A stretch of 63,985 nucleotides of DNA, the filler included, from Dimargaris cristalligena (Eukaryota), in assembly GCA_003614675.1 (NCBI GenBank). It is 5 parts of 5 records of this genome, joined end to end, with 100 filler letters (N's around TTAATTAATTAA, not from the genome) between each part and the next. Parts side by side here need not be neighbours in the genome. Positions count along the whole stretch, not along the records: positions 13,200 to 26,288 come from ML003005.1; 4 more parts are not named here. One strand, 5' to 3'. The position numbers were made by a program, and so were the translations under genes. Each line of letters starts with the position of its first letter. Within the stretch, counting starts at the first letter, position 1. This document shows, one piece after another, positions 1,703 through 49,763 of this stretch. The notes beneath the pieces were generated by a model, which was given only the letters and a program-made list of their open reading frames with translations, ran no database searches and was not told the DNA's origin.

Positions 1703-2833
1703 CTATACCTTGGCCATTGTTTTGTACTTATCCCGGTTAGTGGACCGCGAGCCGATCCCAGTGTTGCTGATCTGCTCGTATATCCGCTGCTTAAACATCG
1801 GTACGTTGACTGTCCGAACAGCGGGGTTAAGTGGAGAAGATGAGGTGGGAAGGGGAGCGTAGACAGCAGACCGGGAAGGGTCTAGGGCTTCGTGAAGAGT
1901 ATGGTGAGATGGAAGCTGTCCAGGCAAAGCTATGGAGGTCGCTAGATGTGTTGAGCTAGGTGCTAGTAAGGAGTGGTGATGACCGGGTTCGCTGTACATT
2001 GTGTTAGGCGATAGGTAGTTACCACCGGCGTTATGAACTGGGCCCACCATGGAAGTGGGCACGCTGGGCTGAGTGACCTCAGTTGATGGGGATTTGGCAC
2101 ACTGGTCAAGAATGGGCTGTAGGATACGACGTCTCGCATTAATGAACCAATTGCTAATCTGGTTAAGCGACAGTTCGGTCTCGTGGGCCAGCGCGATCTT
2201 CTCCTCTTCAGTCGGATACGGGTGTTTAACGTGCTCCAGAAGCCAGGCTTTGAGAATGGCAGTGACGGCTTTAGGTAGATTTCCCCGGCGCTTTTTCGCC
2301 CCTTTGTTGGGATGTAGGCCTGGGGTGGCGGTGGGGGCGGCAGCGATGATTGATGGACCGAGATTAGACATTGGGGTGTTGGTGGAAAAATGATAGGGCA
2401 GGTGGGGCCCGCCCATTGCGTAGGAAGGTGGCCGACGGATAGGTCCGCCTGAGGTGTGACTAGGACCGGCTTGGTGGGTCATCATGGGTGCACCACCCAT
2501 TTGTCCGTAAGGGTTGGTATAGAGGGCCTGGGAAGGGTCGGTATGGAACAACCCCAAGGCGGCGGGGTTGGCTTGTGTGAAGGTCCAGAGGGTTTGCCAA
2601 TACTGGGCATTCTGTAGGAGCATATCGTTGATGCGCACTTTAACCGACTCCAGTTGGGGGGTAGGGTCAAAGGAAGGGGTAGCGAGGGTGGGTGGGGGTC
2701 CCACAGACCCTAAGCCAGGCTGCTGGGGCGGGAAAGAGTTGAATAGCACGACTGGTTTGAAGACCCGCTGGGGATGGTTGGCGGGGGCCACGTAAGGGTG
2801 ATACCTCGCAGACTGATGGAGGGAAACCGCCAT
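1703..2833 (-). CDS. TALE-class (Homeobox_KN; MEIS/TGIF/Cup9-Tos8-like) homeodomain transcription factor
   Basis: 376-aa ORF containing KKRRGNLPKAVTAILKAWLLEHVKHPYPTEEEKIALAHETELSLNQISNWFINARRRIL, with the PYP loop extension and WFINARRR helix 3. The extreme 3' end (AAG|GTATAG) could be a splice donor, so the C-terminus is slightly uncertain. Confidence 0.93.
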   Translation of the reverse strand: MAVSLHQSARYHPYVAPANHPQRVFKPVVLFNSFPPQQPGLGSVGPPPTLATPSFDPTPQLESVKVRINDMLLQNAQYWQTLWTFTQANPAALGLFHTDPSQALYTNPYGQMGGAPMMTHQAGPSHTSGGPIRRPPSYAMGGPHLPYHFSTNTPMSNLGPSIIAAAPTATPGLHPNKGAKKRRGNLPKAVTAILKAWLLEHVKHPYPTEEEKIALAHETELSLNQISNWFINARRRILQPILDQCAKSPSTEVTQPSVPTSMVGPVHNAGGNYLSPNTMYSEPGHHHSLLAPSSTHLATSIALPGQLPSHHTLHEALDPSRSAVYAPLPTSSSPLNPAVRTVNVPMFKQRIYEQISNTGIGSRSTNRDKYKTMAKV

Positions 2834-6440: not shown

Positions 6441-6584
6441 ATATGGGTGATATTCGGCCCAGCTGTATGGGGATTTAAATGATAAGTGCACGAAAAAATG
6501 GGTGAGTGATTCATTTCTAGCCAGTAGTATTTGCCTCATCCAATGGATTTTTCGTTATACAGCCTGGTTGAACCTCTCCCATAT
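6441..6584 (+). mobile_element. MITE family A, copy 1 (144 bp including ATAT flanks)
   Basis: ATATGGGTGATATTCGGCCCAGCTGTATG...TTATACAGCCTGGTTGAACCTCTCCCATAT; imperfect ~30-bp terminal inverted repeats; aligns to six other copies. Confidence 0.85.
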
Positions 6585-12968: not shown

Positions 12969-13099
12969 TGTCGCCCCTCCTAATCCGTCCTAATCCAACT
13001 GATATGACCGCCGTCATATCAGGCCATATAGCACCATATTGTACCCCCCTGGCCCTAACCAGGCCGAACATCATTGATAGCCCCTTAACCGGCCAGGCC
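12969..13099 (+). repeat. Repeat family B, copy 1 (runs into contig end)
   Basis: Closely similar to 26109-26238 (CCTCCTAATCCRTCCTAATCCAACYGATATGACCGCCGTCATATCAGGCC...). Confidence 0.85.
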
Positions 13100-13199
13100 N
13101 NNNNNNNNNNNNNNNNNNNNNNNNNNNNNNNNNNNNNNNNNNNTTAATTAATTAANNNNNNNNNNNNNNNNNNNNNNNNNNNNNNNNNNNNNNNNNNNN
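13100..13199. other. Artificial contig-joining linker
   Basis: N44-TTAATTAATTAA-N44; the core has stop codons in all six frames; identical at four positions. Confidence 0.97.
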
Positions 13200-14119
13200 C
13201 CCCCTTGCTGCCACCTCTTGGAACAGCAAGTCTATCATCACCTTTCCCTTTTATTATCTATCTTTTCAAATAAAGTTCAGTTTTCAAAGATTTGATTTCA
13301 GTTCTTTACACCTTCTAATCTGACTTAATCCAGATATAGTGATTGTCCATCCCTATTAGGTCTTATAGCACCATATTAACCTTCCCATGGTCACCCCCAG
13401 TACTATGGGATTGCCTTATATTACATAACCATTCTCCTTCTGGACTCCTTAGTTCACACTAATCACTCCCAGGTTAATCTGATGACTCTTCCAGTTCCCA
13501 ACAGAGTCTTCCAAGCCCTTACAACTGTCTGGTTGGCTTATTTATTATACCTTAGTCTTAGTAGTATCCTCCTTTGGGGACCTCCCTCTGGAGTTATCCC
13601 CTGCATATAGATAACTGGGCCCCATTGGGACTGGTTCAAGGCTTAGCTTATTCTTACCCCCTTAGTTTATCCCAATAAACTCTGTATATGCTCACCCCCC
13701 TTATATTAACTAGTAAGTGTGCTCCCTGCATGTACCTTGCCTGAACCTGTATTTATAGCCTTTATTAGTTAGTATTGTGCCCCCACCTAATGCTAGGACC
13801 TGCTTGGCCAAGTCTAAGCCCCATCTACCATTAGAAGCCTATCCTTGGGACTCTTGACAGACTAAGAGTAGTTAACCCAGGTGATATCCCTGTCAAACTG
13901 AACTATTATTGATCAAAACATGTTATTGATACTTATGGCTCATTATTGAATATACACTGCACTTCCTTAAAAAATATTATGATTCTCTACTTTTCATTGT
14001 TACTCCTAGGTGGGCCAGGCTAGTGAGCTAAGGGTCATATATATTGGAAATATAAATATGATGGTAAACACAAGTACCTTCAATTACAACTATAAAGATT
14101 TAAAGAATAGAGAAAGAAC
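13200..14119 (+). mobile_element. Degenerate CpG-free repeat/TE relic containing a diverged family B copy (about 13310-13500)
   Basis: No CG dinucleotide found by eye in 920 bp; shares TATAGCACCATATT and AGTTCACACTAATCACTC with family B. Confidence 0.65.
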
Positions 14120-16953
14120 CGCAAGGGGCAAAGCTAGATGCCTGTAGTTGGTTTTATTGTATTAGAAATAGCAATAATGATGATAAAAACGTTGTTTCAA
14201 ATATAGGGTGATATAATCATAGATAGAGAATAGTCCCGGGTATTAGGACGGACCAATCAGAGTAAAGGATTCGGAGGGGTGGGAGAAATGAATTTCTAAT
14301 AATATAGTGGCTGCCGTCGTTAGCCTTGCATCTGGATGGGTGAAACTCTCCTGAATGACAATTGCCCTTTCACTGTAATACAATATTAATTCACATTCCC
14401 GAAAATGCCGGAGACCGTCTCTAGTCGTAGAGTGCACTAATCTGGTGTTTGTGTTCATATCTATCTTATTGGCAGCGGCGGTTACCATTTCAGAAGTTTA
14501 GGTACTGGGAGGCTATGGTGGCTAATGCTTCTGCGAAAGGCTGAGCTTTGCCGTATGGTGTTAGAATGGGCTCTCGCCGAGCGGTGCAGGAATACCATTA
14601 TTAAAACGACCGCCAATAGAGTGCCCTCCTCTGAGTATTATTACTGTACTATTATAGTGGGCTCAGGGTACTGATAATAGATTTTGAGATTGGGTTTTGA
14701 TGTTTTATAATCCCAAGATTGGAGAGCTCCTGTGAATTGAGTAGCCACATAAAAGGGGCGGTGAACAGCGATATCAGCAGATATATCAGTGACGGTGATA
14801 TTGGTTATTTATATCATTAAATATGAATATTTACTGCATATGTTTCTAAACAGGCTTCTAAATTAGGCAAATTGTTTTCATTTAGATGGCTTCCGAGTAT
14901 ATCCACACAGCCAAAGAATGTCTATTGGCTGCTTTGTAGATATAAAAATCCGCTTTCTTGTTAGATTATGTTTGATAGGGGCAATTTTCTTCCGAATCGG
15001 CACCAGCTAAGTGTCTGACAATTCGGTTATTTACGGACAGATTATAGTAAATATAGGAAAATAAGTCTTTTAATCGAAGCTAAAATCCAAAGCCGAAATA
15101 CGCAGGGGTTTCAGTCCCAGTGATTATAACCTGCCCTTTTTTCAGTCCGGCTATTTTTCGAAATTTAACCCAATCAGGGTAAGTGGCGCTATGGATTACT
15201 TATGAACATCAATGTAATCAGTTGTCAGCTGTTGGCCCCGCCCATCTGCTGAATATTTATTATACCAATATATCCTAGGGAAGTTATATTATTGTATACC
15301 AATATCATTATCCAAGCAATTCGGTCAAATCACCTTACTAGCTCACCAATTTCAATTTAAAAACTAGCCAAAACTGTTGAATATCAATACAAGCTTCCGA
15401 TTTTGCTTTATGGACCTTGTAGACAGTATTTGGAACCGCTCAGTTCCCATGTCTAACTTACCATTCAATGTACCAATCGATCAATCGAACCAACCTCGAT
15501 CATTTTTCTATCAGCATCAATTCAATCCACAATCTACCCGTTAAAAAATCTATATACTTGCTTTGAATAGCATAAATGAAAAATCGGAAAGGACTGTTTC
15601 ATAATGACGAATGCCTCTGACAAATAGCCGTAAATCCGGTTTGAAACTGATCGACCTTATTCCAAGCATCATTGATTATGTTATGTTTCGCACCCGTATA
15701 CCTAACCCCTTGTGGATTTATGGTCGTTTCAAGATATTACCAACCCCACCCCCACCCTCTCTCAACTGTTTCATCGAATTGAACTCTTATACGGGCTTTC
15801 ACTTTGCCACACACTTCCTTCCACACCCATACGTTCACAGTCCTTGTTATTTTTAATTTGGGTGGATGATTGGGTATCGCTTACTCAATATTCGGCCATA
15901 CGCCAATTACAGCGTAGTTTAATATTGGTAGTATCCTCTGATGGGGGGACATTCTAGACCTGTTGAAATATAAATCGACCGAGAGGTCCAATATAGTGGA
16001 AAGTCGACTATTGGCTGTTCCCACATATAAGGCAAACCACGTTCTATACAATCTGCGAATGTACATAACAGGGGAGAGGGAGAGAGAGAGAGGATGGACA
16101 TAATTTCATAGACCAATTGGATGGAGCGGATACTGAAGTGACTTCACGGGTGCGACAGTTGCGCGAGTGGGTGGGTAATTTACCTACTCCGACCGAGATT
16201 TGTTACGGAAGGAGGCCATACAAAGCCATGCTGCACAACCTATGGGGTGGGTGTGGAAATGCCATGGGGGGTCAGGCAAACTAGATGCGGCACCTTGCAG
16301 TTCCAACCTGGCCAAAATACAAAACAATGGAAGGGGGCATACTCTCTGTCCACCTGTGGCTTCACTATCCGGGGCTGTCGTCATATTGAGTGAGTCGGTC
16401 TCGGCCCCGAGACTACCCGGCAGGGGGAATGCACGCTGTGAGAGTCTAGTTCGTGGTGAAGAAAGTGTTTGGGCGGGGGAGGGGGAAAGAAGAAGAGGCG
16501 GAGGAAGAGGAGATACATGCGGACGAAGTGACTATGCGAAACGCAGCACTTGTTCAGTTTGGCAGATCCTCGGCTCACTTGGTGATGAGTGCTAGTGGGT
16601 GGTTTTTTTTTTCATTAAGGCTGTGTTTAGGATGAGATAGTAGTATTTTGTGCAACCTCAATTGAACTAACCGGGCCATCCTAATGAAACACTCTGCACG
16701 GTGTGCTGACCCAAAATGAAATCAGGCTGGGCTAGGAAAGGGGTCGCTCTTTCTCTCTCTAGAGAGACCCCACGATGGCGTCTATATTTTTTTCTTCGCT
16801 AGAGCTACAAGATCGCCTGGCTACCAGTGTCTTTTAAAAAATGGTTGACAGTATCGCCAAACAGTAATTTAATTTAGATCACACTCTCCACTACCCCCCC
16901 TGTCTAGGGTGATAGAGGCGGAAATCCCAGGCCCATCTACGACATCAGGTGCC

Positions 16954-16955
<2 letters not shown>

Positions 16956-16984
<29 letters not shown>
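16956..16984. repeat. (TA)n microsatellite
   Basis: About 14 TA units. Confidence 0.9.
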
Positions 16985-16987
<3 letters not shown>

Positions 16988-18653
16988 TGGCCTTAGACCA
17001 CCTGCACTGGCTAGCTCTTCTGGTTGTCCATATTTGTTATTAGCTTCATTTTTTGCCTACCTGTTTTCTAGCCTATTCACATTCTGCAATTTTATATATT
17101 TTAAATATATTGTGTCCCCGAGTATAGTATAGCCTACGTGGTACACACTTTTTTTATGTATAATTGCTATTTCTTCGTTGAGTTATGTCCATTATTTTAC
17201 TACCTATTAATATACTTGGACTTAGCCTGGGGATACTTGTCTGGATAAGATAATTTACAGGTTTTATATTTCGTTATTTGACAGCCATTTTACTCAATAT
17301 CGTTATGCCTTTTTGGATGGGGACAATTGTGCCGCTGAGATTTATTTTTGAGACCATATTGCCGGGCGGGAGTTTAAAATTTTCCCAGACATATATTTAT
17401 ATTCCCACCATGGTATATATTTATGCCCATGGGACATTATTTGTACCATTCGAAAATTGACATCAACTATCATTTAGGCTTTCCCTTGTCATTGTATCAG
17501 ACCAATTTCATCAGCAATATCATCCCATATCGTTATTACCAGGCATTCCCCCTTTACTACTACTATTGGTTCAGTATAGGAGGAGTTGACTCTGCTGGCC
17601 AGGGTGTACCTCATATTTTCCGAGTGGGTCGGCTTTTTATTTGATTGATCCATCTGCAAGCGGGAGGGGGGAGTTTTTGGGCTAGAACAGTAGTGTATCT
17701 CATCTATTTATTGGTCGGGATTTCTCGGTTGAAGAGTATATATTGGGTTGTGCTTCTAGCACTGCACTTCGCTACTGTGTCCATTACCGAATTACCGGTC
17801 TCCTGCATATACACCATCCACTTGCTCCACCGGTTGCCTTTGATCCAAACCGGTCGTCACTGCCCCTTCTACGACGGCCACTAGGCCTTTCCTTCTCCTC
17901 TATTATCTAGTGTCTTGATCCCCCTCTTTGGCTTCCTCGTGCCTGTTATCCTCTCGTCTTCCTCCCCGTCCTTCGATCTGCGGGTGGCGTACCAGTGGTT
18001 AAAACAGGGTGGCTCCCTTTCCATCCCTACGTACTTCCTCCATTGCTCTGACTGTCGGGGGTTCGTTGATTCTATACCCTACTATTGCTTTCTTGTCCAG
18101 AATACCCTCCCTCCCTCTTTCCGACACTGCACCTCTCTTCGCGAGACTCGTGCCATTACTACCCCACCCCTCTTTTATCATCCCCCCTTCGACTTTAACC
18201 GCTCTCCTACTCAAGACCTCCTTTCGCTTAGCTGTAGTTTTTTTCACCCCCCCCATATCTACCTAATTCTTTTACTTGCCGTGGCATTGTGTCCTTCATA
18301 CTCCGCTAGTTAGTTAGTATACACCCTTCCCCCCTCGCCTGACTCGATTGTGCCCAGCCGACCTCGTCCCTGGTGTGCTGCGTTTCTTGTGGTGGTGTTT
18401 CCTGTTAGTCTCGTGGGCTTGCGAGTCTTTCCGTTCCGTCAGCCTGCAGTGGTGAATGGTTCAGCCCCTCCTGTCGACTCCCTCCCCTTCTTCCGTTCCG
18501 CCGTTTGCCTAACCTCGCCATTAACCCTCTTTCTTCGTCTGCAGTCGTTGGGTCGCTAACCCCCCTCCCCTTTGACTAGAATTGTCCCTTTTGTACTCGT
18601 TTTTTCAGGTTTGGACCCGCCTCGCTGCAACAAGGGTATACCGGCCGTCTCCC

Positions 18654-18686
18654 TCTCTCTCTCTCTCCCTCTCTCTCTCTCTCTCT
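18654..18686 (+). repeat. Imperfect (CT)n microsatellite upstream of the bZIP gene
   Basis: ctctctctctctccctctctctctctctct. Confidence 0.85.
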
Positions 18687-19516
18687 TTATCCACCACTTG
18701 TCCCTATTTCCCCGCTGCCCCCTCGGCCCGTGTCCCCCTTCGTTTGAAACATTGTGCAGCCCTTGGTTAACCACCTTCTCCCTGGGACTTGCGTACCACC
18801 GGTAAGTGAGTATGGGCGACCCTTATCGGGCTATATAGCCCCGGGCCAGTCTCTATGGATGGGGAGGGTGTTGCCGGGTCGGACAAAAGCCCCGCTTGTC
18901 GGCGGGTCCTCCACCAGCAGCAGTGTGCGACTTACTTATAACTAGTTGGAAGACCGGGTAGTTGCAGGTGTTGTTGTGACAAGACCACCTCACTACCACA
19001 CCGGGCGGGTATGGCTTATATATGGGGTCCTGCCCGCACCAGTCCTTAGGCTCTTTTTTCCACGCTATCACCTCCCCAGGAGCCGCGCCGACTTTCAGCA
19101 ACCGCGAGTTTCCTGCTTGACTCGTGCACCCTTTAAAAGAACAACTCTCTCCCTCTCTTTGTAAACTTTTACCACTTCAAAGCGGCGGACTTTTCGACTC
19201 TGTTGTTAAGCCGCTCACCCACTGACTGCTACTAACTTCGCCCTACCAATGTGTGTGTGTGTTCCTCTCTTCCCCCACACCTAGGCGAGGAGGTCTCTCA
19301 TTCCTTTTGCTTCACCTGTGTCATTCCTTCCTCTCTCTCTCACTCGCGCAGTCCGTCATATGGTCCACTTTTATTCCCAGCGGGTCCATTAACTTCCCCA
19401 CCCACCTTATCTCTCTCACTTCGTTTTCCTCCCGCTTCCATACTCAGTCTCTCTTATCCCTCAGTCAGTGTGTCTACCGCGTCTTTTCCTGCCCCCCTCC
19501 CTCCCCACTTCTCTAT

Positions 19517-21757
19517 ATGGCATCACCCAAGCCTCTCGGGGATTCGGCCCCCCCTGCCGAGAACCCTCCTCGTCCTTCTTCTCCTCCTCCCAATTCTGGT
19601 TCGGACGTCCCTCTCCCTAGTTTCCTTCGTCCTGGTCTAGTTTTACCCCCATTACGCCGTTTCGGCAAACCATCTCACATACCCGTCCAGACTACTAAAT
19701 TACCCGACTTTATCGAGTCTGCGAGACTCGCTGATGGTTCGGCCGTCCCCAAGTCTCCTTCACCAGTAAGTCGTATTCCCTCGCTCTCTATCTATAATCC
19801 ATGCATATCCCGCTGGATTATGTGTATTACTGCCTATCTCTGGCTACCCTGTGCAGGCTCCACTCCGCTGTGCATTATTGGACTGGTGTGGACTCGGCCT
19901 AGGCTGTGCTATTGGTGGTCCTGCTGGATAATCCCGCATTGGTATGTGCGCCTCACCAACTCCACTCCCACCACCACTGCACATAGTGGTCGTAATTCCC
20001 GTATACCACCGTAATTGGTATACGTACACACACATATATATATACATATATCTACACGGCGTCTTTTTTTCGTAGCCAGTCACTATAGTAATAATACTTC
20101 CACCTTGTTTTATCTACCCCCTCTATACCTTACTTTAAGACGCCACTTAGTGATATACCGAGGCCGGCAACTGAGGCGCTCTCAAAGTTAGTGGTAAGTT
20201 ACTACCAATATCCCATATGTTAATTCAAAGTGAGTTGTGTCTATTTATTAGTAATTATAGCTTTGTGTTTTATCCCAGCAGTAAACCGCCACATTACCGG
20301 TCCTTTCCCCCTATTATCTAGATAATACCACTCCTCCGGGCCTGGTACCGGAATTACCTCATTATGCGACGTTACTGATATAGAATCTGTGGCTCCGCTG
20401 CCTACGTATCTGATTATCATCCTAATCAGAAATATCCCTCACCGCCGAAGAATTCACGCAATATCCCCATTCGGACTGCCGTACCGTTGCCACTGGACCC
20501 ACCATCACAACCCCAATCCCTCCCCGGCTTCTCACCCGAGCCTCTATCGTCCGTTCAAATCTTTGGCCGCCAAATCCCCTCATCTCCACTATTATCCATC
20601 ACCGAACCGCCCGAATTCATCCCCATTCCAGTTAAAATACCCCCATCTCCGTCTCGTGGGCGCATGCCTGTAACGCCGATCCCCCCTTATATTCCCGAGC
20701 TTTTACTAATCAACCACCGTGCTGCTGATCTGAAGAATTCCCGGATTTTACCGGTAACGAGGAATTTACTACCCGTATACCCTCCGGTTAGCGGCCACGT
20801 CCCTATCCCCACCGTCTCATCACTAGCTACCCATCATCACCTAATAGCCCAGACCCCCCCTACCGTACCTACTAATAATACCGCCACCTCCACGGCCACA
20901 ACCACCACCGCTGTCACTTCTACTGCCACTGCCACTGCTACTGGCACGTCTATCGCAACCCCCTCCACTTCGGCTGCTCGACCCCGGTTGTCCCAGAAAC
21001 CCAAATCGCACGGCTCATTTCGATATTACAGTGAAATGGAACATATTCCGCCCGATCCCGAAGAGGAACAGCGCAAGAGGGACAAGCGCCGCGAACAGAA
21101 CAAGAACGCCTCCAAACAGTTCCGTGAGCGTAAGAAGTCCGAAATGCAACGGCAACGGAAGTTTCAGCAGGAACAACAGGCCAGGGTCGAATTCTACATC
21201 CAACAGGTGGTACACCTACAGGCCCATATCAAGGAGATCCAGGGTAGAGGGGGCGGGGTGGCCCAGATGCCTTTGCCCGATGAGATACTCGATAATCCCG
21301 CCCTATTGAGTACTCTGCAGGGTCCGAATCCCCCCGATAAGGTTTACCGTAACCCTAGCACCATGTCCATGGATGATGTTCGAGAGGAGATTGCGCATCT
21401 TGAGCGCAAAAACAAAGAGCTTCGCCTGATTAATGCCGAAGTTGACACTAATGTAAGTTGTACCACATATTATACGTTTGCTATATATGTAACTGCTTAA
21501 AGAATCGGACATCTTGAATGTGCTGGGGTTACCAAGTAACTGTATAAGAACCCCTGGTATTTCTTTATTTGATAGTATCATTAATCGCCTAAATTCCTTG
21601 ATCTCTCTGTTTTTGTCATCTATATACCTATATATATATATAGGTGTCAAATCTCCGCAGTCAATTAGAGCTTATGTCTAGTAGTGGGGCAAATGAAATG
21701 TCCGAAGGTCACCCTGGTCCACCAGAAGAATCTCGGTCTCGTTTAGAGACGGGCTAG
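19517..21757 (+). CDS. bZIP transcription factor; predicted exons 19517-19765, 20140-20193, 20430-21452, 21644-21757
   Basis: Basic region RKRDKRREQNKNASKQFRERKK (N-x7-R) followed by a coiled coil. All junctions are phase 0 with GTAAGT donors (19766, 20194, 21453) and AG acceptors (20139, 20429, 21643). The last exon reads VSNLRSQLELM...ETG*. Confidence 0.85.
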
Positions 21758-23356
21758 TGAGGTCCCACCAAAATTTGAAGGTCCCTGCTCATTTTATTAT
21801 TATTGAATATTGCCTTTGGGATCCGTGACTGCTGATTAGTCTGCAGGCTACTACCACAGTTGTCCGCCAAATAACCTTAACTAATTTATCTTTATCGATA
21901 TTATTGCAAATTGGATATCAGTACTTCATTTAACTTTATATTCGGAGAGTCATTCAATCAGTCTAATTGTCTCGGCATCTACGGGGACGTTTGATCCGTC
22001 GGTTTTGGTACCAGGTGTTATTTACCAACCTTTGATATGTTTGTTGCACAGTTATTGTCATTGTTAAATTAACAATCAAGTACCCCTTTCCACCCACCCT
22101 CTATCATTTACTAGCTTGGTTTTATTTCGCTACCTATTATTACAAGTAATGTCCCCGCTTAATTGGACTATGTTAGCTACGTGGATTTTTCCAATCCAGT
22201 TATTCTTGTGGTTCTCGGCAGTTCTTTATATACCGCCTTTTCTTACCCTTCCCCCACTGTCTTTGGTCAATGGGATTGAAAGTCGAAAGTTTAGGTGGGT
22301 AAACACATGGTACACCCGTTTCAATAAAAACATCGATTTGGGTGAGGGGAACCTTTTTTTTACTTGGAACGGTCCACATGGGTAGACTAAGCTTTTCAAT
22401 GTTCATGATGTATATTTTACGCGAAATGAATACTTTACTTCACCCCACACTCCCCTTTAAGCTTCTACTAAATGTCATGAATCCCGGGGAAGATTGATTC
22501 ACCGGGCAGCAAAGTCCCTCTCAAAGAATAGGAAGAAAAAACTTACTTGTGCGTAGTAAGGCATTTCTTATAGATTTATAGGGTGGTTGCATTTGCACAC
22601 TTTGTTGCCCACGACCGACTGATACGGTATGATATCCACCACATTTGCTGATCATATTTGAGTTATACAATTTTTAATTAAAGATTAATTGCTCTTAACC
22701 AGTTATTTATTTTGTTTTAATCGGTTTTCGCCATTATCCTATTGTCTGAGCATTCTAGTTGTCAAATGAATCGAGGTCGCTATTGCTGCGTTTTTCACTA
22801 ATGTCGGTAGTTGGATTTGAGTATATAGACCCATAGCTCTTATGTGTCAGGCAAGTGGCTTCTTTATCATCAAATCGGCACTTTACTAGCAATTTCCCTA
22901 TAGTTTTCGCAGTCAGCCGTAGGCCACGTGTATATTCTTAACCCATTCTATAATTAGCCATGCCAATAGTTATTATTATCGAGGGTGTTAATTGTTCATC
23001 CTTAGTGGTGGTAGCTGCTATACAGTTTAGGAACTACCTACTCCTATTTGCTTCCGGTGGAACCCCCTCTCTTCACCTTAGACTGAATCGTTGACTCCAA
23101 AACCCTACCCCCCCCTTCCTGCTTTAACTCATAGGAAAATCTCGGGAGTGACTTTCGTCCCGCCGTTCATCCCTCCCCACCAAAGTCGGCGGACCCGATC
23201 TATAAGATCCCCTCTAAATATACCCTCGCGAAATAATTCTTAGCGTTCTTTATATATTGGTCCTACGGGGCCAGGTTGCAAATTATATATCTCGCTAACT
23301 AATAAGTAGACGTCGCACCAGTTGGGTGGATTGGTTTTCTTCCATGGTGTGTAAAA

Positions 23357-23500
23357 ATATGGGTGAAATTCGGCCCAGCTATATAAGGGTTTACATTATA
23401 CGTGTATGGGAAAATATATGGGAAATGTATTTTTAACTAGTAATAGTGGCCGAATCTAATGGATTTTTCGTTATACAGCTTGGATGAGCTTCTCCCATAT
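23357..23500 (+). mobile_element. MITE family A, copy 2
   Basis: ATATGGGTGAAATTCGGCCCAGCTATATAA...TTATACAGCTTGGATGAGCTTCTCCCATAT, 144 bp. Confidence 0.85.
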
Positions 23501-23921
23501 CAAACTGGATGATTGTGACCAATAGACTTGCGAGGCAACTGTTTTATTGGGAAAATGATAATGCTGCTAGTACTAACTCAAATATATATATCATATGCAA
23601 TGATGACTAATGAATAATGGGTATAATTGGATAATACATAGGTGTAGGAGTCACCTTGCTAAGGAAAGGACGAAAAAAACGAGTGGGCATGCAGCGAGTG
23701 TAATCAACACAACTCTATATAAACATATGCGGGCAATTTAATAGTCAATTAGCTCCTGACCAACCCCACCGGGAAATATCCTCACATACATGTCCTCCTC
23801 TATGTATATATGTAGGTATATTATGAGGGGAAAAGAAAAAGACCTGGGCCAGCCAAAGTAAAAGAAAGGGCCCCCACATCCTCCTTACGCCGCCCTAACG
23901 AGATGAAAATTTATCCATCTA

Positions 23922-24158
23922 CTACTTTTTCTTGGAACTGAGTAAACTACCCGCTGCTTTTACACCTTTCCATGCCAACCTAGCCCCTGTCACAAGAGCA
24001 GGGAGAAAACGCCGCTCGAGGTGAGCGGGCGTGGTAGGTTGAACGGCATTAATGACAGCGGATGGGGAAGGCAGGGGGTGGGCCAAAGTCGGGGAGTTGA
24101 AAAGGGCGTAGGTGGCCATGCAAAAGCATAGGGTAATCAGGCGAATGAGAAACAACAT
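23922..24158 (-). CDS. Secreted prepro-peptide: signal peptide, pro-region, LERR dibasic site, 28-aa cationic amphipathic peptide
   Basis: Hydrophobic N-terminus with a likely TLA|HP signal cleavage; P/S/T/A-rich pro-piece ending HLERR; mature FLPALVTGARLAWKGVKAAGSLLSSKKK; TA-rich TATA-like element at about 24429-24440. Confidence 0.78.
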   Translation of the reverse strand: MLFLIRLITLCFCMATYALFNSPTLAHPLPSPSAVINAVQPTTPAHLERRFLPALVTGARLAWKGVKAAGSLLSSKKK

Positions 24159-26108
24159 TGCATATGTCTTTAGGGGTGTTAAAACAGCCGGTTCCGTTGG
24201 AGAGAGGATATGATATACACCTAAGTTGGGGTGGTGGGGAGGAAGGGGACTGAAAATTGGGAATAGGTAATGGATAGTGGATAGCGAGGATGAAAAATGT
24301 GGTGCAGCGTAATGGGAGGCGGATGAGCAGTGGGAGCGAAAATGCTAGCGGAGATGAATAGCAAAAAATGGGTGAATGGAATCTATGAAATGGAGTTGAT
24401 GCTAAAAGCTTGAGGGGAGAGGGGCATCTATATATATAAATAGCTAAATCACCAGGTGATATATACTTGTATGGTTGAATGGGCTGAGGAAGATTTACTG
24501 GGACAAGTTGAAGCTGTTGCGTATTGGAAAAAGCAAGGGTGCGAGCGGAGCGGAGCGAAGAGGGGGAGTGAGATGAGCCATCGAACAAGGGAGAAGGTCT
24601 CCTATCAGCTGAGATACATACAATATAAATGATTTACTACTGGTATAGCCGTTGCATTCTTCCGAACTCGGCCCCCCGTTTTGCTGTAATGCATGTCGAC
24701 AGTGATATTTAGGCTGTGATTATAACACCAGATAGGCCAACGAAAACACGTCTCAATAACAAAATATTAATATTCTTGCCCATATTTTCAACCACCTCCC
24801 CCACCTCCTCCCTACATGTTGAAGGGACTTTGGGGAAACTAACATCCTCTTCTTCGAAGAAATATAACACCGCTTTAATTTACCCCAATATACGGCGGAT
24901 GTACACTCTTTGTTAACCGGGCAATCCGCCCATTATTTACAAAAAGGTGAAAGGAGAGCTTAAAAAGCATTCGACGGAGGGAGGTAGGGAGGGGACATGG
25001 GGGCATTATCGCTCCTCCTGTTGTCGGAGGGGACGAACGGAAAATGTACCAATAGGCGGCTTGCCGATCGATACATATCTACGATTGAGGTTTTTTTAGG
25101 ACACGAGAGCCCCTCACAATCCACCACCAGTCTGTCGACGAGGACTTGCTTCAGCTAACCCAGCCAATTTATTTGGAGATTATTGGGACTAGACATCCAC
25201 TGCTGGCCACAAATTATAATATATACTTTAGGGCTAGGGAGACCGCCCACCAGCCGAGCTTCAAACTAATCGAGTCGGAGGGTTTTTAACGACGGTATAT
25301 GGCCGAGTTTTGTTGGCCTGATCGAATAATTCTCTCTCTCTCTCTATGTGTGTGTGTATAAGGGAGGAGGGACATTGGCTATATCCCCGGGCCCTTGGTC
25401 GCGGATACCTCACCGAATGCTTCTAGTAGGGTGGTGTTGGAGAAGGTAGGTCGAATGCAGGAATAGACTCCATCGAATAAACCGCCTGTCTTTCCTTACG
25501 AAATTGTAAACCAATTTGGCTGAAGTAGGAAGAGGGGATGTGGTAATAAACACAGCGCGACATTTGGTCAGAACCAATAAAAGTTAACTCAAATAACCAG
25601 CGTATATCATTTGAATCTTGACTGCTGCCCTATAATGGCGGAATACGCTGCAGGTTAGTACAACCTGTAATTTGCCAAGCAGGTATAGATCTAACCTCAT
25701 TGTGACTATGTATTTATACGTGGAAGTCCGCCGCTGAGGAAAATACTCAGTCTCGCATAAATTTGAATCGAAGCAGTACGGTATATTTCATATATAATTA
25801 CTATTTTTTTGCAACAGAGGTATTCACCCCAACAGAAATTATTAGGGTGCTTCATACACTGACCCTCCCCACCCGAGTCTAAGGGGCGACAACTCTACCA
25901 GCCATCTCCCAATATTGCATTACACTATACAACCACTCCTACTCTGGCCCACACCCCTAGCTATATACCCGGTACTTGGGGTATAGGGCAAAAGTAGAGG
26001 TAGTCTGTCTACAAGATCCCAGACCCTTCCTGGGATTCAGATAGCCAAGACATACCCCCCCCCCCGCCTGCCCTACAATGACTTTCTCCAAGATCAATGA
26101 TTCATGTC

Positions 26109-26288
26109 TGTTACCCCTCCTAATCCATCCTAATCCAACCGATATGACCGCCGTCATATCAGGCCGTATAGCGCTATATTGTACCCCCCGGCCCTAATAA
26201 GGCCGAGCATCATTGATATCCCCTTACTGGCCGGGCCTCCCGGAGTTCGCACTAATCACTCGTAGGTGATCCTAGTGCCTTCCAATTC
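26109..26288 (+). repeat. Repeat family B, copy 2 (runs into contig end)
   Basis: Aligns to 12969-13099 and, more distantly, to 13310-13500. Confidence 0.85.
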
Positions 26289-26388
26289 NNNNNNNNNNNN
26301 NNNNNNNNNNNNNNNNNNNNNNNNNNNNNNNNTTAATTAATTAANNNNNNNNNNNNNNNNNNNNNNNNNNNNNNNNNNNNNNNNNNNN
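26289..26388. other. Artificial contig-joining linker
   Basis: N44-TTAATTAATTAA-N44. Confidence 0.97.
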
Positions 26389-28475
26389 CCCTACGTCCTA
26401 CTCGGCTCCCCTAAATACTAGTCCACCACGACCAAACGTAACAGTAGTATGAGAAGGACTGTGGGACATTAGGTCAAGGATAACCTAAAGAACGGTGCAT
26501 CCGGACCGGTTTGGAGTGTCTGGATGGTTGGTTGGTAGGGCGCTTGATCTTGGTTCACCTACCGAATCCGATGAGAGCGGTCCCATCCAAAATACCTTTT
26601 GATGACTGGGCCGGCAGTAAAATAGATGGGGGCGGCGTGATAAAGCAATTGGGGCTAACAGTAACTTGGCCAAGGCCTCGCCTGCCCCTGTGAAACGGCC
26701 CAGCTTAACAAGGTTTTCGGCCTCAATAGCCAAGATATATACATCGCTATGCATCTAGATTTGGCATCCGATAACAGGGTCCTGGTGGATAATGACCGAA
26801 TAAAATAATCACCCACCAACCCCGACCTAAAGGCCTAGCTTCGCCCTATTTCGAGCCCAATTAACGGTGCGTTCGACCACAATAAACATGGTGTACTGCT
26901 TTATTTTCTATTATAATTTGGCCCGGACTAATAATCGCCTGCCCATTTAGCCAGTCGGACCCTACCGAATTTTCTCCCAGCTACTGCTTGCAACAGGCCA
27001 GTGGCTAACGTAGCCCCGATTTGGAGACTGGTCCAGAGATTGCCGTTCCGAACAGACCTGTGGCTAGGATTCAACCACGAAAGCCGTTACGATGAAATAA
27101 GCAAACCCCACCCCATGAACATCAAGTTACTTGCCTAACCTGACAGAAAGAGCGAAGACTATCCGCCTCCAGCAGGAGCTGCAGGCGTTAGAGCTCAATC
27201 CGTCTAATCCCCCAAATGATGGCCAGTGATTAGGAGGTGGAGGATCGGTCAGACTTCACTCAGGGATCCCGCTGTCGCTCCTGTCCGCCGCCTAAAATAT
27301 GCGAATGCCCTTTATTTAACCTATTTATCGCCCTTTCCTCAGGATTGGCCGTTCCCCATTCATTACCATTTAGAATCGACCGACCATCGTCGTGAGGTCT
27401 TGGGACTTCCTAATATATATTAGTGGGCCTTTAATATAGTTGATTTCTTACTGATCTTCTTCGTTCCATCCACCACTCCCCCTCCTCCTTCCCCCTTTCT
27501 TGTTCATCTTTGCTCTTTTTTGCTTCCGCCCATCTTTCAGATGAAAGGGACTGCTAGGTGGGGTTGCTCCAATCGAAGCCATTGCTTCTCCACCTCCTCT
27601 ACTTCTCCCCCCCCTTCCTCGTCCCTGTACTAATTGTACTTGCTGTCATTCTTGACTCCTCTTTGTATGATGCCGGCTCATCCATCGGCCGTCACCAGCT
27701 CATCTCAATTAGTGTATCTCCAAGAATACCGACGATGATCACGAAAAAGGGATCGGCTTAGATGTGGGCTGGATATAAAACCGCCCACATCCCCCCCACA
27801 GTGCACCGCCCTATATTCACTAAAGCCTTTTTGGGCACTTTTTGGTTTTCCTTAACGTTTTGTAACCCCTTTAAAACTGGAGTCTTCCAGCATCCTCTCC
27901 GCCTTTTCTCTTATTCTTACTCTCTAACTCTCACTCTCTCCCTTCCTCTCTCTCTCTCTCTAGTTCGCTTACTCTTTAAAACTCTAATTGTTTTTATGCA
28001 GTCATTCTGCATAGTTAGTGAACCGCCCTTAACGAATTCCGCCTCTATACCCTGTAGCACCGCTTATTACCCTTTTAAATTTATTTTAATTTAGTACATA
28101 CCGACAGGTTCACCCAGCCCAAACCTGCCGATTATTCTTATTTTTGACTTTGCCCAACGATCAATACTGTTTCGGCCTAAAATAACTACGCCCGCATTTC
28201 GGTTTGGACCTGTGTGTAGTACCAACCGTTCTTTCTTGCCCAACACCTTCATTTATTAAAGCGTCTATCGCTTACTTCTGACGCCCACTTTTATAATTAC
28301 CCTATCCTCCGCCGGTATTTAGACCGAACCTTTTCCGCCTTACCACCTTAGCCACCCCCTCTTACTTAGTGTAATTCCCCGACCTATATCTTTCGACGCC
28401 TTGCTTACATTACTGCCCCTGAGATTATAACAGGGTCTCTCAACGAAACACCTCGGTCCTTTCTATTCGTTCGAC

Positions 28476-29939
28476 ATGTCGGAAACCGGAACTGATTTTG
28501 GCCTGTACAGCTCTGTACCTTCCTCCACCGCACGGAAGTCGCACGACGGTATGGTCACCAGTCTGGACGAGGCACTTGGCAACCTTCGCCTACCCAGCGG
28601 GTTTGGTGGGGTCATGACGCCCAACAGCCCCAATCCCACCCAGTTCTCACTCCCGCTGGGGAACGGCCCCTACTTTACCGGGCTGGAAAAGCCGGCGTCC
28701 CCGTGGCTGGCTACACCCCCCCGCTCCCGGACCACCTCGGAAAATAGCATCGAGCCCCAGGTCCATCGCAGCAACAGTAACTTTGGGTTTTCATTCGCCA
28801 GCTCACATCCCAGTCAGTCGATCCCTAGCCCACTGGCCATCCAAGATATCCGGGGTTACTTCAACTACCCCAAATCCCCCTATACACCCGTGCCGCTGTC
28901 CGCTGGCCAAAACCAGCAGCTTAGGTCACCGTACCCATCCCAACCCCCCACGCCCTGCACTCCCCCCTACGCGGCCGGGTATGCGCTCGGCAGCCCCAGT
29001 CCATCCTACCCGCATGCCACTGCCCACCACCACCAGTACCCTCACCACCATTACCCTTTAGCCAACTCAGGTGCCAACAACCACCTGTTTTACCCTAAGG
29101 CCGCCCCCGCCAAACGGGGCAAGGGTCCCCAGATTGTCACTTCGCCCCAAGCCCTGGGGGGACGGCTGGGCTCGCCCACGGCCTCCTCCCCCTGTGGCAT
29201 GAGCCCATCATCCGCCTCCCTCCGCTCCGCGCCCACCAGCGCATCCCTACGTGGCCCCCGGGAGGCCCTATCCAGTCCCCGGGAGCGTGCCCCCGAAGCG
29301 ACGGCCTTCCAGTATCTGATTATCGTCGATTTCGAAGCCACTTTTGACCCCCCCTCCAGCCACCCCCCGACCGGTGGCCCCAACACCCGGCGCACTAACA
29401 ACCAGGAGATCATTGAGTTCCCCCTGGTGGTTTTCGATATGAAACTCAACAAGGTCGTGGATGAATTCCACCATTACGTGCGGCCCGTGCACCGCCCGTT
29501 GCTCACCCGGGCCTGCATTGAGTCCACCGGTATTGATCAGCGCACCATTGACCAAGCCGACACGTTCCCGTCGGTGTTCGAGCGTGCCCGTTTCTTCATT
29601 GGCGAATACGACATGCGGGCCCGGGCCGCCGGCGGCTCCCTGACGTTTGTGACTTGCGGGGACTGGGACCTGCGCAAAATGCTGCCCCAGCAATGCCGCC
29701 TCTCAGGAACCAGCGTGCCCACCTGTTTCCGCCGCTGGATTAATGTCAAGAAGAGCTTTGCCGAATACTTCCAAACCGAGCCCCAGAATATGCGGGATAT
29801 GTTGAGCCACTTGGGCCTGCCCCTTATCGGCAAGCACCGCAGCGGTATCGACGACGCCCGTAATGTGGCCAGTGTACTCAAACGTCTGATTGAGCTGGGC
29901 TATGGTCTCAAGCTCACGACTGACTTGGATACCATCTAA
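28476..29939 (+). CDS. ERI1/ERI3-family 3'-5' exoribonuclease (DEDDh) with long disordered S/P-rich N-terminus
   Basis: ExoI IIVDFEAT, QEIIEFP, YVRP...LT...TGIDQ, ExoII TCGDWDL, W-I-N-V-K-K, ExoIII GKHRSGIDDARN. Confidence 0.92.
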   Translation: MSETGTDFGLYSSVPSSTARKSHDGMVTSLDEALGNLRLPSGFGGVMTPNSPNPTQFSLPLGNGPYFTGLEKPASPWLATPPRSRTTSENSIEPQVHRSNSNFGFSFASSHPSQSIPSPLAIQDIRGYFNYPKSPYTPVPLSAGQNQQLRSPYPSQPPTPCTPPYAAGYALGSPSPSYPHATAHHHQYPHHHYPLANSGANNHLFYPKAAPAKRGKGPQIVTSPQALGGRLGSPTASSPCGMSPSSASLRSAPTSASLRGPREALSSPRERAPEATAFQYLIIVDFEATFDPPSSHPPTGGPNTRRTNNQEIIEFPLVVFDMKLNKVVDEFHHYVRPVHRPLLTRACIESTGIDQRTIDQADTFPSVFERARFFIGEYDMRARAAGGSLTFVTCGDWDLRKMLPQQCRLSGTSVPTCFRRWINVKKSFAEYFQTEPQNMRDMLSHLGLPLIGKHRSGIDDARNVASVLKRLIELGYGLKLTTDLDTI

Positions 29940-31107: not shown

Positions 31108-31251
31108 ATATGGGAGAGGTTCAACCGAGCTGTATAACGAAAAATCCGCTAGATGAAGCAAATACTACTGGTTAAAAATAAATCTCCCATATATTATCCC
31201 ATGCACTTACCATTTAAAACCTTATACAGCTAGGCCGAATTTCACCCATAT
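31108..31251 (-). mobile_element. MITE family A, copy 3 (reverse orientation)
   Basis: ATATGGGAGAGGTTCAACCGAGCTGTATAA...TTATACAGCTAGGCCGAATTTCACCCATAT, 144 bp. Confidence 0.85.
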
Positions 31252-31316
31252 TATACAGCTTGCTAAGCTATACACTCCAACCAAAGCTCTACCAAGGCTG
31301 ACTAGTTGGCGAATGC

Positions 31317-31460
31317 ATATGGGTAAAATTCAAACCAGCTGTATAAGGTTGCACATAATATATGTATGGGCGAATATACGTGAGAATAGCTTTTAACCAG
31401 TAATATTGGCCGCATCCAATGGATTTTTCATTATACAGCCTGAATGAACTTCTCCCATAT
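31317..31460 (+). mobile_element. MITE family A, copy 4
   Basis: ATATGGGTAAAATTCAAACCAGCTGTATAA...TTATACAGCCTGAATGAACTTCTCCCATAT, 144 bp. Confidence 0.85.
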
Positions 31461-33074: not shown

Positions 33075-36000
33075 GCTGGAGAGCCCCCAGGTCAAGAATA
33101 ACGGCCCTGGCGTAATTCGGCTGGACTATGGAGTTGTTTAGGAGGAGTTGTCCTGGAAGAGTATAGTATAGACCTTATCGTGGACATGGCCGCACTCCGG
33201 CGCAATGGAGGGAGATTTTTGTTGCTTGGTATGTAAACCATTAAAATTCGTGATTAAGCAAGGGGTGGAAGATGAGCATGCCACTGGAGAGGGGAGGATG
33301 TTAGGTTGAGGAGACCCACCTCTGAGCAACCCACCCCCGGATTGGGAAGGGACCATCTCATCTATTTTGGAAATGTTTGACAGGATATTCTGTATTGTAA
33401 GCACTGTGACAGATCGCGCAGGGGATAGTCCCAAACAATAGCCCGGGTTGGCCGAGAAGGGGGGATATACCTGGTGATTGGCTCAACTTAAGGGATCCGA
33501 ATGCACTCAATATCAATACCAATACAATATCAATAACAGAACGGGGCCCCATTAGGGGAAATACCAGCCAGGGCCCACAACAGATGGAGGGGTAAATCTA
33601 GCCGTCGCCCCCAGTGGGGCTGGTTATTATGCCTTTTAATAGATAGACTGGTAGGTGGGTCACTCTTCCTTGCAGTGCATCAAGTGTAGGTCGATCGGAA
33701 TGGACTAATAAGACCTCTCTCTCTTATTTTTGCCTGGGTATAAATCGGCCAATAACCGGTGGGTGACCCACACCACCACCACAGCCTACGCGTTGGTGGA
33801 TTAGGATTAGGATGACCCGCGTTATGCTCTGTATATGGAGGGTGGATGTTATTAACCCAGGGATTAGAAAGGAGATCAATGACTCTAGTCTTACAAACTC
33901 ATCCCCTCCTCCTTCTTTCATAGGCATTGGGGGAGGCTGTGGGTGTGGGTGTGTGAGTAATATGTGTGCAGCATACCCACTATTCCCACTGGCTCTCTTG
34001 TTCACCCCCCTTTTACAGGCCATGTGGCTATACAAACCAGGCAAGTCGGAATTGCGGTATGTTGTGGACAATAGTAGCGCGGCAGGGTTCGGCAGGGTCC
34101 ACCCCCACTACTCACGATGCGCAAGACCAGACCTCCCTCCCTCCCTACTAGGCCAGGGAGTGGGGTATGGGAAGGGGCACCAAAGGGATATGGTGGATAT
34201 ATGTCATGGGTAACCACCCCCCGCCTCTCTACTGCTCTGGTGGTAATCGAGACTGCAACGGTCAGGTGTGGGAAAATGGCATTGCTTTCTGGTATGAGAG
34301 GAGATTCTACAGCGGATGAATTGTGCGGACCAGAAAACACGTGCCGGGAGCCATTAGGTCTCGCGACACGTCACACCGGCCCCTCTATTGTCCTTGGTGT
34401 TTTTTGGTAGGCTATATATGAGTAGGGGGGGCTCTATTGGGTGGATGAGTGGGTGTGTTGGCCCAAGGAAAACGGAGAAAAGGGGAGGAGATATTGATGT
34501 CGGGTATCGGTAGCCATCCCGCCCACACCACCACCAGTTAGCCGGTGCCGCTTATTGGACTGTGGCCATGGGAAACCCCACCGTTGGTGGACCAGTAAAA
34601 TTCGAGTGGATTTTCCCATCCCTACCGCATTTTTTTTTCACGGTGGGAGTTTAGGGGGTCAAAATCAGGAGAAGAGAGAGAGTATAATAATAGAGAAAGA
34701 AAAGAGCATACAAAGAGAATCAACCAGCCCGGTTGGGTATATGCTCTGAGATGATGACTGACAGCCCCCCCCCCCGCTGTTGGCATATACTCAGTTAGTT
34801 GGTTAAACGCCTACTATATGCGGTAGTAAAGAGTACATGCGGTAGTAGAAGAGTAGAGTATATGCGGTAGTAGGCCCCCCCATTCGATTGGAAAATATTG
34901 GAAGCCTTAATAAGCACCCCAGCCTATTTTTTTCGACCCTTCTTCCTTCACTTAACCACCTGCGTCTCTTTCTCGTTTCCCCCCTTTTTTAGGCTATTAT
35001 TGTATTGTTGTTGCAGCGGCCGCCGTTTCTTTCCTTCTTGTCGTCTTGATCGCTGTTGCCTTTCGTTTTCTCTACAAAGTCCTTGGCTGATCTCCTCGTT
35101 ATCCCTTTGTGGTCGGTTATTGCTTGCTTGTACACCTACCTACTTCGTTGGATCACTACTCCTACTACTCCTACCTAACTCATACGGCCTACGGTTGTTG
35201 TGTTGCTTCTTTATTATACCTTCCTTCCTTACCCACCTAATAATAATCCTCCCAACACTTCCCTCCATGTATACACCCCAGTTCACTATCGACTCTACCC
35301 GATCGTCCCTGTAATTTTACTTTCTTCTTCTTTCACTTCCCTTTTAGTACTCCCCACCCCTTTGTCAGTTTGACGTGCTATAGTTTGTTTCCTGACTTGT
35401 ACCCTAGTTTCTTTGCCCACCCCACTCTCCAATATATATATATATATATTTAAATATATATCCTGCCCTCTCACGCACGACGTACTCCCCCAAAAGTAAG
35501 TCTCATCTACTGCTGACCAACCCCCTCCCTTCTCGACGTCCGGTTCTTTGACACAGAGCCCCATCGGGCGTGACCCTTCGAGCCGCAGTATACTTGCTTG
35601 AGCTGTGAAACTGCTTGTGGGAATAGGGGTGTGGGTATATTTATATTACGCCAACTCCCTTCTTAGTACTTTTCAGAAGTAGAGTAAACGAAGTCTTTCC
35701 AGTTTCCCAGCTCAGTGAGACCAGGTGGTGCCCTTTTGCGGCCGACTTACCTGGCCCCCTTCAGCCTAACTAACCTAAGTTTATATTGCCTATTTTGTCT
35801 TCCACTTTGCTGTCATTGTCGAATAATCCTGGGCTGGCTATTTCTTGTTTAGGGAATTCCCTCTACTCGGTTGATTCCTCTCTGCGTTATCTTTTCCTGG
35901 TCTAATTTTAAATTCCAGCCACCTGTCCTCAACCAAGCCGGTGTAGTCCTAGTGTTCCCTTTTATCTATCGACTTGCCCAGGTTTCTGTAGTTTATTCGC

Positions 36001-36274
36001 CCACTTTTTCTCCCTTTTGAAGTCCGTTTTCCCAAACCCACGTATCGAGTCACCCCGTCACGTCGTTCACGTATTATCTCATCCCGGTCCGTTTGTTCTA
36101 GCGTTCCCCGAGCCCCTTCTTCTCTCTCTCCCCCGCCTATCAACGGTGTATTCTGCTTCCCCTATTTCGCTGCCTTGAGGTTTTGCTTGGTAGTGTTATT
36201 CCCCCATCTCTGTCACCTCTCTCTTTTAGATACTGGCTTTTGCGCCGTATGCTTGTCGAAGCTGATTCTTCCCA

Positions 36275-39426: not shown

Positions 39427-39526
39427 NNNNNNNNNNNNNNNNNNNNNNNNNNNNNNNNNNNNNNNNNNNNTTAATTAATTAANNNNNNNNNNNNNNNNNN
39501 NNNNNNNNNNNNNNNNNNNNNNNNNN
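39427..39526. other. Artificial contig-joining linker
   Basis: N44-TTAATTAATTAA-N44. Confidence 0.97.
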
Positions 39527-40520: not shown

Positions 40521-40661
40521 ATATGGGAGAGGGTCAACTGGACTGTCTAACAAAATATCCGTTAGACGAAGCAAATATTACCGTTTATAATAAAACTCCC
40601 GTCAGCTATTCCATACACGTCAATTTAAACCCTATACAGCGGGCGCGAGATTCACACATAT
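40521..40661 (-). mobile_element. MITE family A, copy 5 (reverse, diverged)
   Basis: ATATGGGAGAGGGTCAACTGGACTGTCTAA...CTATACAGCGGGCGCGAGATTCACACATAT. Confidence 0.8.
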
Positions 40662-49620: not shown

Positions 49621-49763
49621 ATCTCAGAGAATTTCGTCCATGCTGTATAACGAAAAATCCGTTGGGTGGGGCAAACATTACTGGTTGAAATTAAATCTCC
49701 CGCCTATTATCCCATACACATATTCTGTAAATCTTATACAGCTGTACCAAATTTCACCCATCT
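49621..49763 (-). mobile_element. MITE family A, copy 6 (reverse; ATCT direct repeats)
   Basis: ATCT-CAGAGAATTTCGTCCATGCTGTATAACGAAAAATCC...TTATACAGCTGTACCAAATTTCACCC-ATCT. Confidence 0.8.

Follow-up and report, generated by a model that had tools for sequence, protein, structure and literature searches.

The question raised by this locus is whether a short open reading frame (ORF), lying on the minus strand at 23922-24158 of a 63,985-nucleotide stretch of Dimargaris cristalligena DNA (the window), encodes the precursor of a membrane-lytic peptide. A preliminary description had read into it a signal peptide, a pro-piece that ends in a Kex2 site and a cationic helical mature peptide for use in antagonism, mycoparasitism or defence. 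If real, such a gene would extend the known lytic peptides by a linear one that is made on ribosomes and released by Kex2, in a mycoparasitic lineage that has hardly been studied, and it would show that genes of this kind escape annotation. Here we conclude that the ORF is most likely not an evolved antimicrobial-peptide gene.

Genomic setting of the ORF

The window consists of five size-sorted contigs of 13099, 13089, 13038, 13032 and 11327 bases placed end to end, with spacers at 13100-13199, 26289-26388, 39427-39526 and 52559-52658 that are each made up of 44 N, a 12-base linker carrying stops in six frames and a further 44 N. Because the window is built of joined contigs, genes on different pieces are not neighbours. 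The contig to which the ORF belongs (13200-26288) has only one clear gene, at 19226-21500 on the plus strand; between 21500 and 26288 a search of Rfam at E up to 1 gave no match and a tRNA scan none, and a search for repeats around the ORF returned only a TA-rich pair and the spacer. Genes that can be named through Pfam are found on the other contigs and comprise a homeobox gene, an RNase_T/ERI1-like exonuclease, a PUF gene and ORC3. In a further ORF of 1239 aa (42487-46206, minus strand) codon usage strongly resembles that of genes; Pfam gives no family for it at E up to 0.01, and its exact protein is present in public collections. The ERI1-type 3'-5' exonuclease (28476-29939, plus strand) has its nearest named relatives in five species of Dimargaritales, at 46-70% identity, and by this sequence affinity the organism appears to belong to the mycoparasitic Kickxellomycotina. 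The Dimargaritales are described as a mycoparasitic order with genomes of about 20-30 Mb (PMC9866270).

A dispersed repeat of about 144 nt, the seven copies of which are 71-83% alike, occurs at 6441-6584, 23357-23500, 31108-31252, 31317-31460, 40521-40661, 49627-49767 and 51948-52084. It is common to four of the five pieces, which indicates that the contigs belong to one genome, and its nearest copy is 420 nt downstream of the ORF. Summed over the contig sets, the repeat is several hundred- to a thousandfold deeper than unique DNA, and we therefore regard it as MITE- or SINE-like. The two copies at 31108-31460 are arranged head to head. A second repeat, 90% alike between its copies, occupies 26114-26237 and 12974-13099, each at the very end of a contig, and this placement fits an assembly that broke at repeats.

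An assembly chimera at the locus is unlikely because contigs of two studies are collinear over 23458-26054. One contig from a run of the second study (X5) spans 23458-26137 with 9 other letters and 3 gaps relative to the window, and among the differences listed (24672, 24957, 25730, 25833, 26060 and 26065) none falls in the ORF; differences as few as these are too few to speak of selection. A run labelled as a different organism (X6, organism B) contains four identical 151-nt pieces within 24660-25729, at a depth of 2-3, along with matches to the repeat. The identical pieces look like carry-over between libraries and not like a relative.

Architecture of the predicted product

Calling the ORF and translating it reproduced the previously described 78-aa frame exactly, in coordinates and in sequence. 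It extends over 78 codons from an ATG to a TAG stop and is directly followed by a second in-frame TAG (23919-23921); the frame is open in the 5' direction up to 24344, which amounts to 140 codons from stop to stop. The start of the product, residues 1-26 (24081-24158, codon score 0.313), is signal-peptide-like in that Arg6 is followed by an uncharged hydrophobic run and Thr-Leu-Ala precedes the proposed cut after Ala26, with an earlier acceptable cut after Ala18. Where the preliminary description put a signal peptide of about 26 residues, a basic-then-hydrophobic stretch is present. It is signal-like by a crude, home-made rule, which was applied to the 110 ATG ORFs of 45 aa or more in the intergenic DNA and is passed by 2 of them. 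There follows a spacer rich in Pro, Ser, Thr and Ala (residues 27-50, 24009-24080, codon score 0.486), the end of which is formed by LERR (residues 47-50, 24009-24020). The reported preference of Kex2 is for an aliphatic residue, best Leu, at P4, for Lys or Arg at P2 and for Arg at P1 (10.1101/2020.05.27.120113). By this preference LERR, with Leu at P4 and Arg-Arg at P2-P1, is a good and indeed near-optimal match, and the cut after RR proposed earlier would fit it.

The remaining 28 residues (51-78, 23925-24008), which constitute the proposed mature peptide, include six Lys or Arg and no Asp or Glu and have a net charge of +6. Translation has in this way confirmed both the LERR end of the pro-piece and the basic, acid-free tail. 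The whole product has a single RR, a terminal KKK and no repeat, the part after LERR is without cysteine, and the pro-piece is not acidic, having one Glu as against two Arg and two His. In a single-sequence AlphaFold2 model of the 78-mer (mean pLDDT 61.3) helices are predicted at residues 2-21, at 32-37, where it is short, and at 45-75, the last of which passes through the LERR site. Means over 10-residue blocks are 54-72 for the helix at 45-75 and 50-54 for residues 22-44, which are mostly devoid of secondary structure. Such a model shows a predicted helical propensity and nothing beyond that.

Some other identities for the product were considered and rejected. A signal-anchored membrane micropeptide is ruled out by the length of the uncharged run after Arg6, which is only about 14 residues, and an ER retrieval tail of the KKXX type by a Lys at -3 that has no counterpart at -4 or -5. 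An alpha-pheromone precursor is likewise ruled out, there being no repeats and no likeness to alpha-pheromone motifs.

The tail had been described as an amphipathic helix. On a helical wheel at 100 degrees per residue F1, L2, L5, A9, A12, W13 and V16 (numbered from the start of the tail) do lie together at 0-120 degrees, and R10, K14 and K17 at 160-220 degrees, but L11, L22, A4 and V6 are outside the hydrophobic arc. The best hydrophobic moment of the tail over 18 residues is 0.336 on the Fauchere-Pliska scale, compared with a shuffle mean of 0.314, and 39% of 5000 shuffled versions of the 28-mer do as well; for residues 1-25 the moment is 0.31, which 6% of shuffles reach. A moment clearly above that given by composition, which would be expected of an amphipathic alpha-helical antimicrobial peptide, was not seen when the 28-mer was compared with its shuffles.

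Searches for relatives

The exact 78-aa protein was not found in a collection of 15 billion protein sequences. That collection does contain, with NCBI as their source, two other proteins of the window (487 aa and 1239 aa), and because the product of the ORF is absent while these two are present we conclude that public annotation does not call the ORF. Word-indexed protein searches gave 4 candidates of 42-137 aa and 201 candidates of 138-2000 aa, none of which scored. With phmmer, a search of 1.84 billion representatives at E up to 0.001 yielded three matches: P0005 is a repeat protein of 2827 aa in which one 40-residue match, 28-33% identical, recurs many times; P0006, of 2156 aa, is matched by phmmer over 6 stretches; and P0007 has a BLASTP E value of 0.06. 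Judged from these sequences, none appears to cover the tail convincingly. The ESM Atlas gave no usable match to the product, and there were no matches at E up to 10 to Pfam families or to PDB chains. When metagenomes were scanned with the ORF, 588 pattern matches were obtained and none was confirmed; a scan with the exonuclease, for synteny, located only two loci, at 31-33% identity and on contigs of 2-3 kb, and was of no use. Paralogues, which the preliminary description had suggested looking for, were not detected by tBLASTn within the 64-kb window. Little weight attaches to this lack of relatives: the organism's nearest named relatives are distant, with only 46-70% identity even in the conserved exonuclease, and the searches covered proteins, metagenomes and the window.

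Coding character changes at codon 50

Codon usage was compared with a small reference set of 11 genes, 9 of which are on other contigs of the window. Over residues 1-50 the codon log-odds score is +0.396, as against a median of 0.355 for gene windows, and among 899 open non-coding windows 0.8% score as high. The synonymous index of the same residues is 0.735, within the range of the genes (0.60-0.76) and reached by 0.9% of 1149 open non-coding windows, and their GC3 is 0.66 compared with 0.64 in genes. A position-specific base model favours the ORF's own frame over these codons by 7 and 16 bits; with the same model the CT tract immediately 5' of the ORF has no such frame preference. This gene-like, frame-specific stretch of 50 codons at a gene-type start site is the one feature of the locus that is not explained away.

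The tail is of a different character. Its codon log-odds score of -0.404 is below that of every 28-codon gene window, and its synonymous index of 0.476 is below all 458 windows of 28 codons from the 11 reference genes; of 3275 non-coding windows that are open, 7.8% lie lower still. None of the 203 gene windows that are themselves basic (net charge of at least +5) undercuts this value, the minimum among them being 0.517. The GC3 of the tail is 0.39 as against 0.64 in genes, and the position-specific base model finds no frame preference in it. Gene-like codon usage is consequently not a property of the whole ORF, since the index lies inside the range of genes for residues 1-50 and outside it for residues 51-78, where composition and codon usage are both non-coding-like. 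The 28-residue tail is the weakest part of the lytic-peptide claim, though the claim rests on it.

A pyrimidine-rich tract precedes the start codon

On the minus strand a pyrimidine-rich tract of promoter or leader type, containing up to 76% C+T per 150 nt, occupies 24171-24440 and ends at the ATG of the ORF, and a second one at 23991-24150 covers most of the first 50 codons together with the first six codons of the tail. A TATA-like run of alternating T and A at 24429-24442, about 270 nt 5' of the ATG, is a candidate element read from the sequence. Tracts were defined by a C+T content of at least 70% per 150 nt, and they form seven clusters in the window. Five of these adjoin known genes on their 5' side and on the strand that codes, as long tracts at 2781-4510 and 46191-47130 (minus) and at 17791-19720, 27381-28420 and 34901-36270 (plus); one is 3' of a gene, and the seventh is the cluster at 23991-24440 (minus). 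A start in, or no more than 60 nt after, a CT-rich tract of the same strand is found for 5 of the 8 known genes, the exceptions being ORC3 and the genes at 58567 and 62016, and for 2 of the 110 intergenic ORFs, namely the ORF studied here and that at 27762-28094. Same-strand tracts of this kind thus make up a promoter or leader signature that may help gene calling in this genome. The ORF at 27762-28094 (plus) is a chance frame of 110 aa that begins with ATG and lies inside the CT-rich leader of the exonuclease gene, from which it follows that CT tracts can hold long chance frames.

The start codon of the ORF is overlapped by a short out-of-frame ORF of 8 codons (24137-24163, minus strand), the ATG of which is 5 nt upstream. 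At position -3 the upstream ATG has a pyrimidine, which makes its context weak, and the ATG of the ORF a G; the known starts in the window mostly have a purine there.

The base composition switches near the proposed cleavage site: GC skew on the minus strand is -0.6 over 24134-24020 and +0.35 to +0.43 over 24017-23865. Because the skew flips at about 24017, the tail, on which the entire functional claim depends, is composed like purine-rich DNA that does not code. Base shuffles of the N-terminal part were open for 50 codons in 7848 of 20000 cases, and only 221 of these 7848 looked signal-like; among 3354 open shuffles of the C-terminal part, the tail, only 204 were basic and free of acidic residues. 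Composition alone does not account for the combination of a signal-like start with a basic, acid-free end.

How often the arrangement arises by chance

The length of the ORF is ordinary, the window containing 60 ATG ORFs of at least 78 aa. Of the two intergenic ORFs that are signal-like by the crude rule, one, that at 23922-24158, has in addition a dibasic site and, behind it, a basic tail free of acidic residues. We simulated 700 sets, in total 32.1 Mb, from a third-order Markov model of the intergenic DNA of the window and obtained 1.97 signal-like ORFs per set. In the whole of this simulated DNA 139 ORFs satisfied a loose composite rule and 9 a strict one, which was written after the finding had been seen and hence understates chance. 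From these counts several look-alikes per genome are expected without selection. The 32 Mb of simulated intergenic DNA in which about 9 chance imitations are expected is roughly the size of the contig sets of this genome.

Discussion

We give a little better than an even chance to the view that the ORF is a fortuitous or very young frame without a selected function, one that arose by chance or is a proto-gene, at a promoter-type tract that is itself real. According to this view, the ORF would have formed where a pyrimidine-rich promoter- or leader-type tract on the minus strand meets DNA that is richer in purines. The C/T-rich tract, in which stops are few, translates into a sequence rich in Leu, Phe, Ser, Pro and Thr, and so into the appearance of a hydrophobic signal sequence followed by a Pro/Ser pro-piece; at about 24017 there is an abrupt change to DNA with G over C and lower GC3, which as far as the first stop favours codons for Lys, Arg, Gly and Ala, and the RR is provided by a CGG-CGT pair at this very switch. 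We infer that a short or non-coding transcript may have its promoter or leader in this tract, or that the tract may be left over from a gene since lost, and that whatever the ORF produces would probably be without a selected membrane-lytic role. The composition switch, the non-coding-like codons of the tail, the lack of relatives and of annotation, and the rate at which chance yields the same arrangement are all observed. Against the fortuitous origin stand the placement of the ATG at a same-strand CT tract, the gene-like first 50 codons, the LERR motif and the G at -3, and orphan status is in itself weak evidence. Should the ORF be translated, its product would be expected to enter the ER, to lose a signal peptide after Ala18 or Ala26 and to be cut by kexin after LERR in the Golgi, with the release of a 28-residue basic tail.

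The same promoter-type tract with its well-placed ATG, the gene-like codons in a preferred frame and the signal-like start are also what a real gene would present, and we have weighed the case for a small secreted pre-pro-protein of the Kex2-processed pro-domain type, confined to its lineage and missed by annotation, the tail of which would act not in membrane lysis but as a signal, as an effector or in no role yet. The poor codon usage of the tail would then be explained by its youth. This reading gains from the position of LERR behind a spacer that AlphaFold2 models at low confidence and as largely unstructured, and from the prediction of Kex2-processed repeat proteins in some Zoopagomycota (PMC6339444); we nevertheless hold it to be rather unlikely, given a tail that is unlike every coding window of the reference genes, an upstream ATG that overlaps the start, and a product that is neither annotated nor related to any protein found. 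The sharp passage from coding-like to non-coding-like sequence at codon 50, together with the high-copy dispersed repeat a short way downstream, could instead mean that the first 50 codons are the first exon of another, spliced gene with later exons that went unrecognised, or what survives of a secreted-protein gene that a rearrangement cut short; the tail would then represent intron or junk in which the frame happens to continue to the first stop. The two ORC3 introns that we read in the window, about 110-150 nt long, use GTAAGTTA donors, yet no GTAAGT occurs inside the ORF; all three minus-strand frames are closed by 23922, and no coding-like open frame follows on the minus strand within 21500-23900, where the best score is 0.076 over 36 codons. 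With the contigs of two studies collinear here as well, we consider such an exon or relic decidedly unlikely. An upstream exon spliced into the open frame at 24159-24344 was ruled out separately, there being no coding-like frame in the 5' direction up to 26050.

There remains the reading with which the locus was introduced, a ribosomally made, linear, cationic, helical peptide released by Kex2 to permeabilise membranes, for example those of a mucoralean host. The succession of signal, spacer, LERR and basic tail agrees with it, as do the net charge of +6, the partial hydrophobic arc and the helix modelled over residues 45-75, and since the nearest named relatives are mycoparasites a weapon directed at a host would be biologically plausible. 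Codon usage could in principle also break where a conserved signal and pro cassette gives way to a mature part that evolves fast. Even so, we judge this reading very unlikely: the hydrophobic moment of the tail is matched by more than a third of shuffles, its codon usage is worse than that of most non-coding windows, the pro-piece is not acidic, no PDB chain or Pfam family is similar at the threshold applied, and the 64 kb hold no paralogues. Little credence can be given to the fuller version of the idea, in which the ORF is a genuine gene of a dimargaritalean mycoparasite with a conserved signal and pro cassette that ends in an optimal Kex2 site, and in which the 28 residues behind it, young and evolving fast, form a cationic helix that permeabilises the membranes of a mucoralean host or of competitors. 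As it stands the locus is mainly a caution, which is that a pyrimidine-rich leader tract beside purine-rich DNA can mimic a precursor composed of signal, pro-piece and basic peptide.

Comparison with known precursor systems

The mature peptides of the frog temporins and brevinin-1 are basic, typically start with Phe-Leu-Pro and follow a dibasic site behind a signal and an acidic pro-piece. The tail of the ORF is like them in that it starts with FLP, is basic and comes after a dibasic site. Unlike the frog precursors, the ORF has a pro-piece that is not acidic and no cysteine, and the organisms are of unrelated kingdoms, so that relatedness of the precursors is not indicated; the likeness to frog peptides drawn in the preliminary description comes down to a coincidence of three residues, and the Pfam and PDB searches at E up to 10 returned nothing.

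In the fungal effectors termed K2PP, a Kex2 site comes after a disordered pro-domain (10.1101/2020.05.27.120113), and the ORF resembles them in this respect, with LERR at residues 47-50 behind residues 22-44, which are modelled as mostly unstructured. The K2PP mature parts reported there (SnTox3, ToxA and SIX1/4/6) begin at residues 59-96 and take up the remainder of proteins of 178-284 aa, and the pro-domains tested in the same study aid the folding of cysteine-rich effectors (10.1101/2020.05.27.120113). In contrast, the ORF has only 28 residues after the site, no cysteine and no sequence similarity to these proteins, and nothing in it corresponds to a folded effector domain. KEPs are secreted precursors that are cut at KR or RR into small peptides and have been predicted in some Zoopagomycota; as defined in that source they have at least three repeated motifs between Kex2 sites (KR, RR or KK) (PMC6339444). 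The ORF, with one site and no repeat, falls outside this definition.

Candidalysin, from Candida albicans, was a parallel drawn in the preliminary description. This peptide of about 30 residues is reported to damage host membranes and is cut by Kex2p, after a dibasic site, from the secreted Ece1p (PMC5784256), and the ORF would, by prediction, likewise give a short peptide, of 28 residues, after the dibasic site of a secreted precursor. Ece1p is a polyprotein of 271 aa with seven KR sites, in which candidalysin is internal and lies between two cuts (PMC5784256), whereas the ORF has one RR site, its peptide is C-terminal and no homology was found, so that it does not have the features that mark Ece1. 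The preliminary description had further supposed that Kex1 would trim the C-terminal basic residues. Kex1p does trim candidalysin, but by the account in that source it takes off only the terminal Arg and the mature form keeps its terminal Lys (PMC5784256); because that Lys is retained, loss of the KKK end of the ORF product is not implied. If the lytic reading were true after all, the break in codon usage at codon 50 would mark the recent birth or rapid turnover of the active part, and the locus would represent a weapon similar to candidalysin in a lineage of fungi that diverged early, with a precursor that yields a single peptide instead of a polyprotein.
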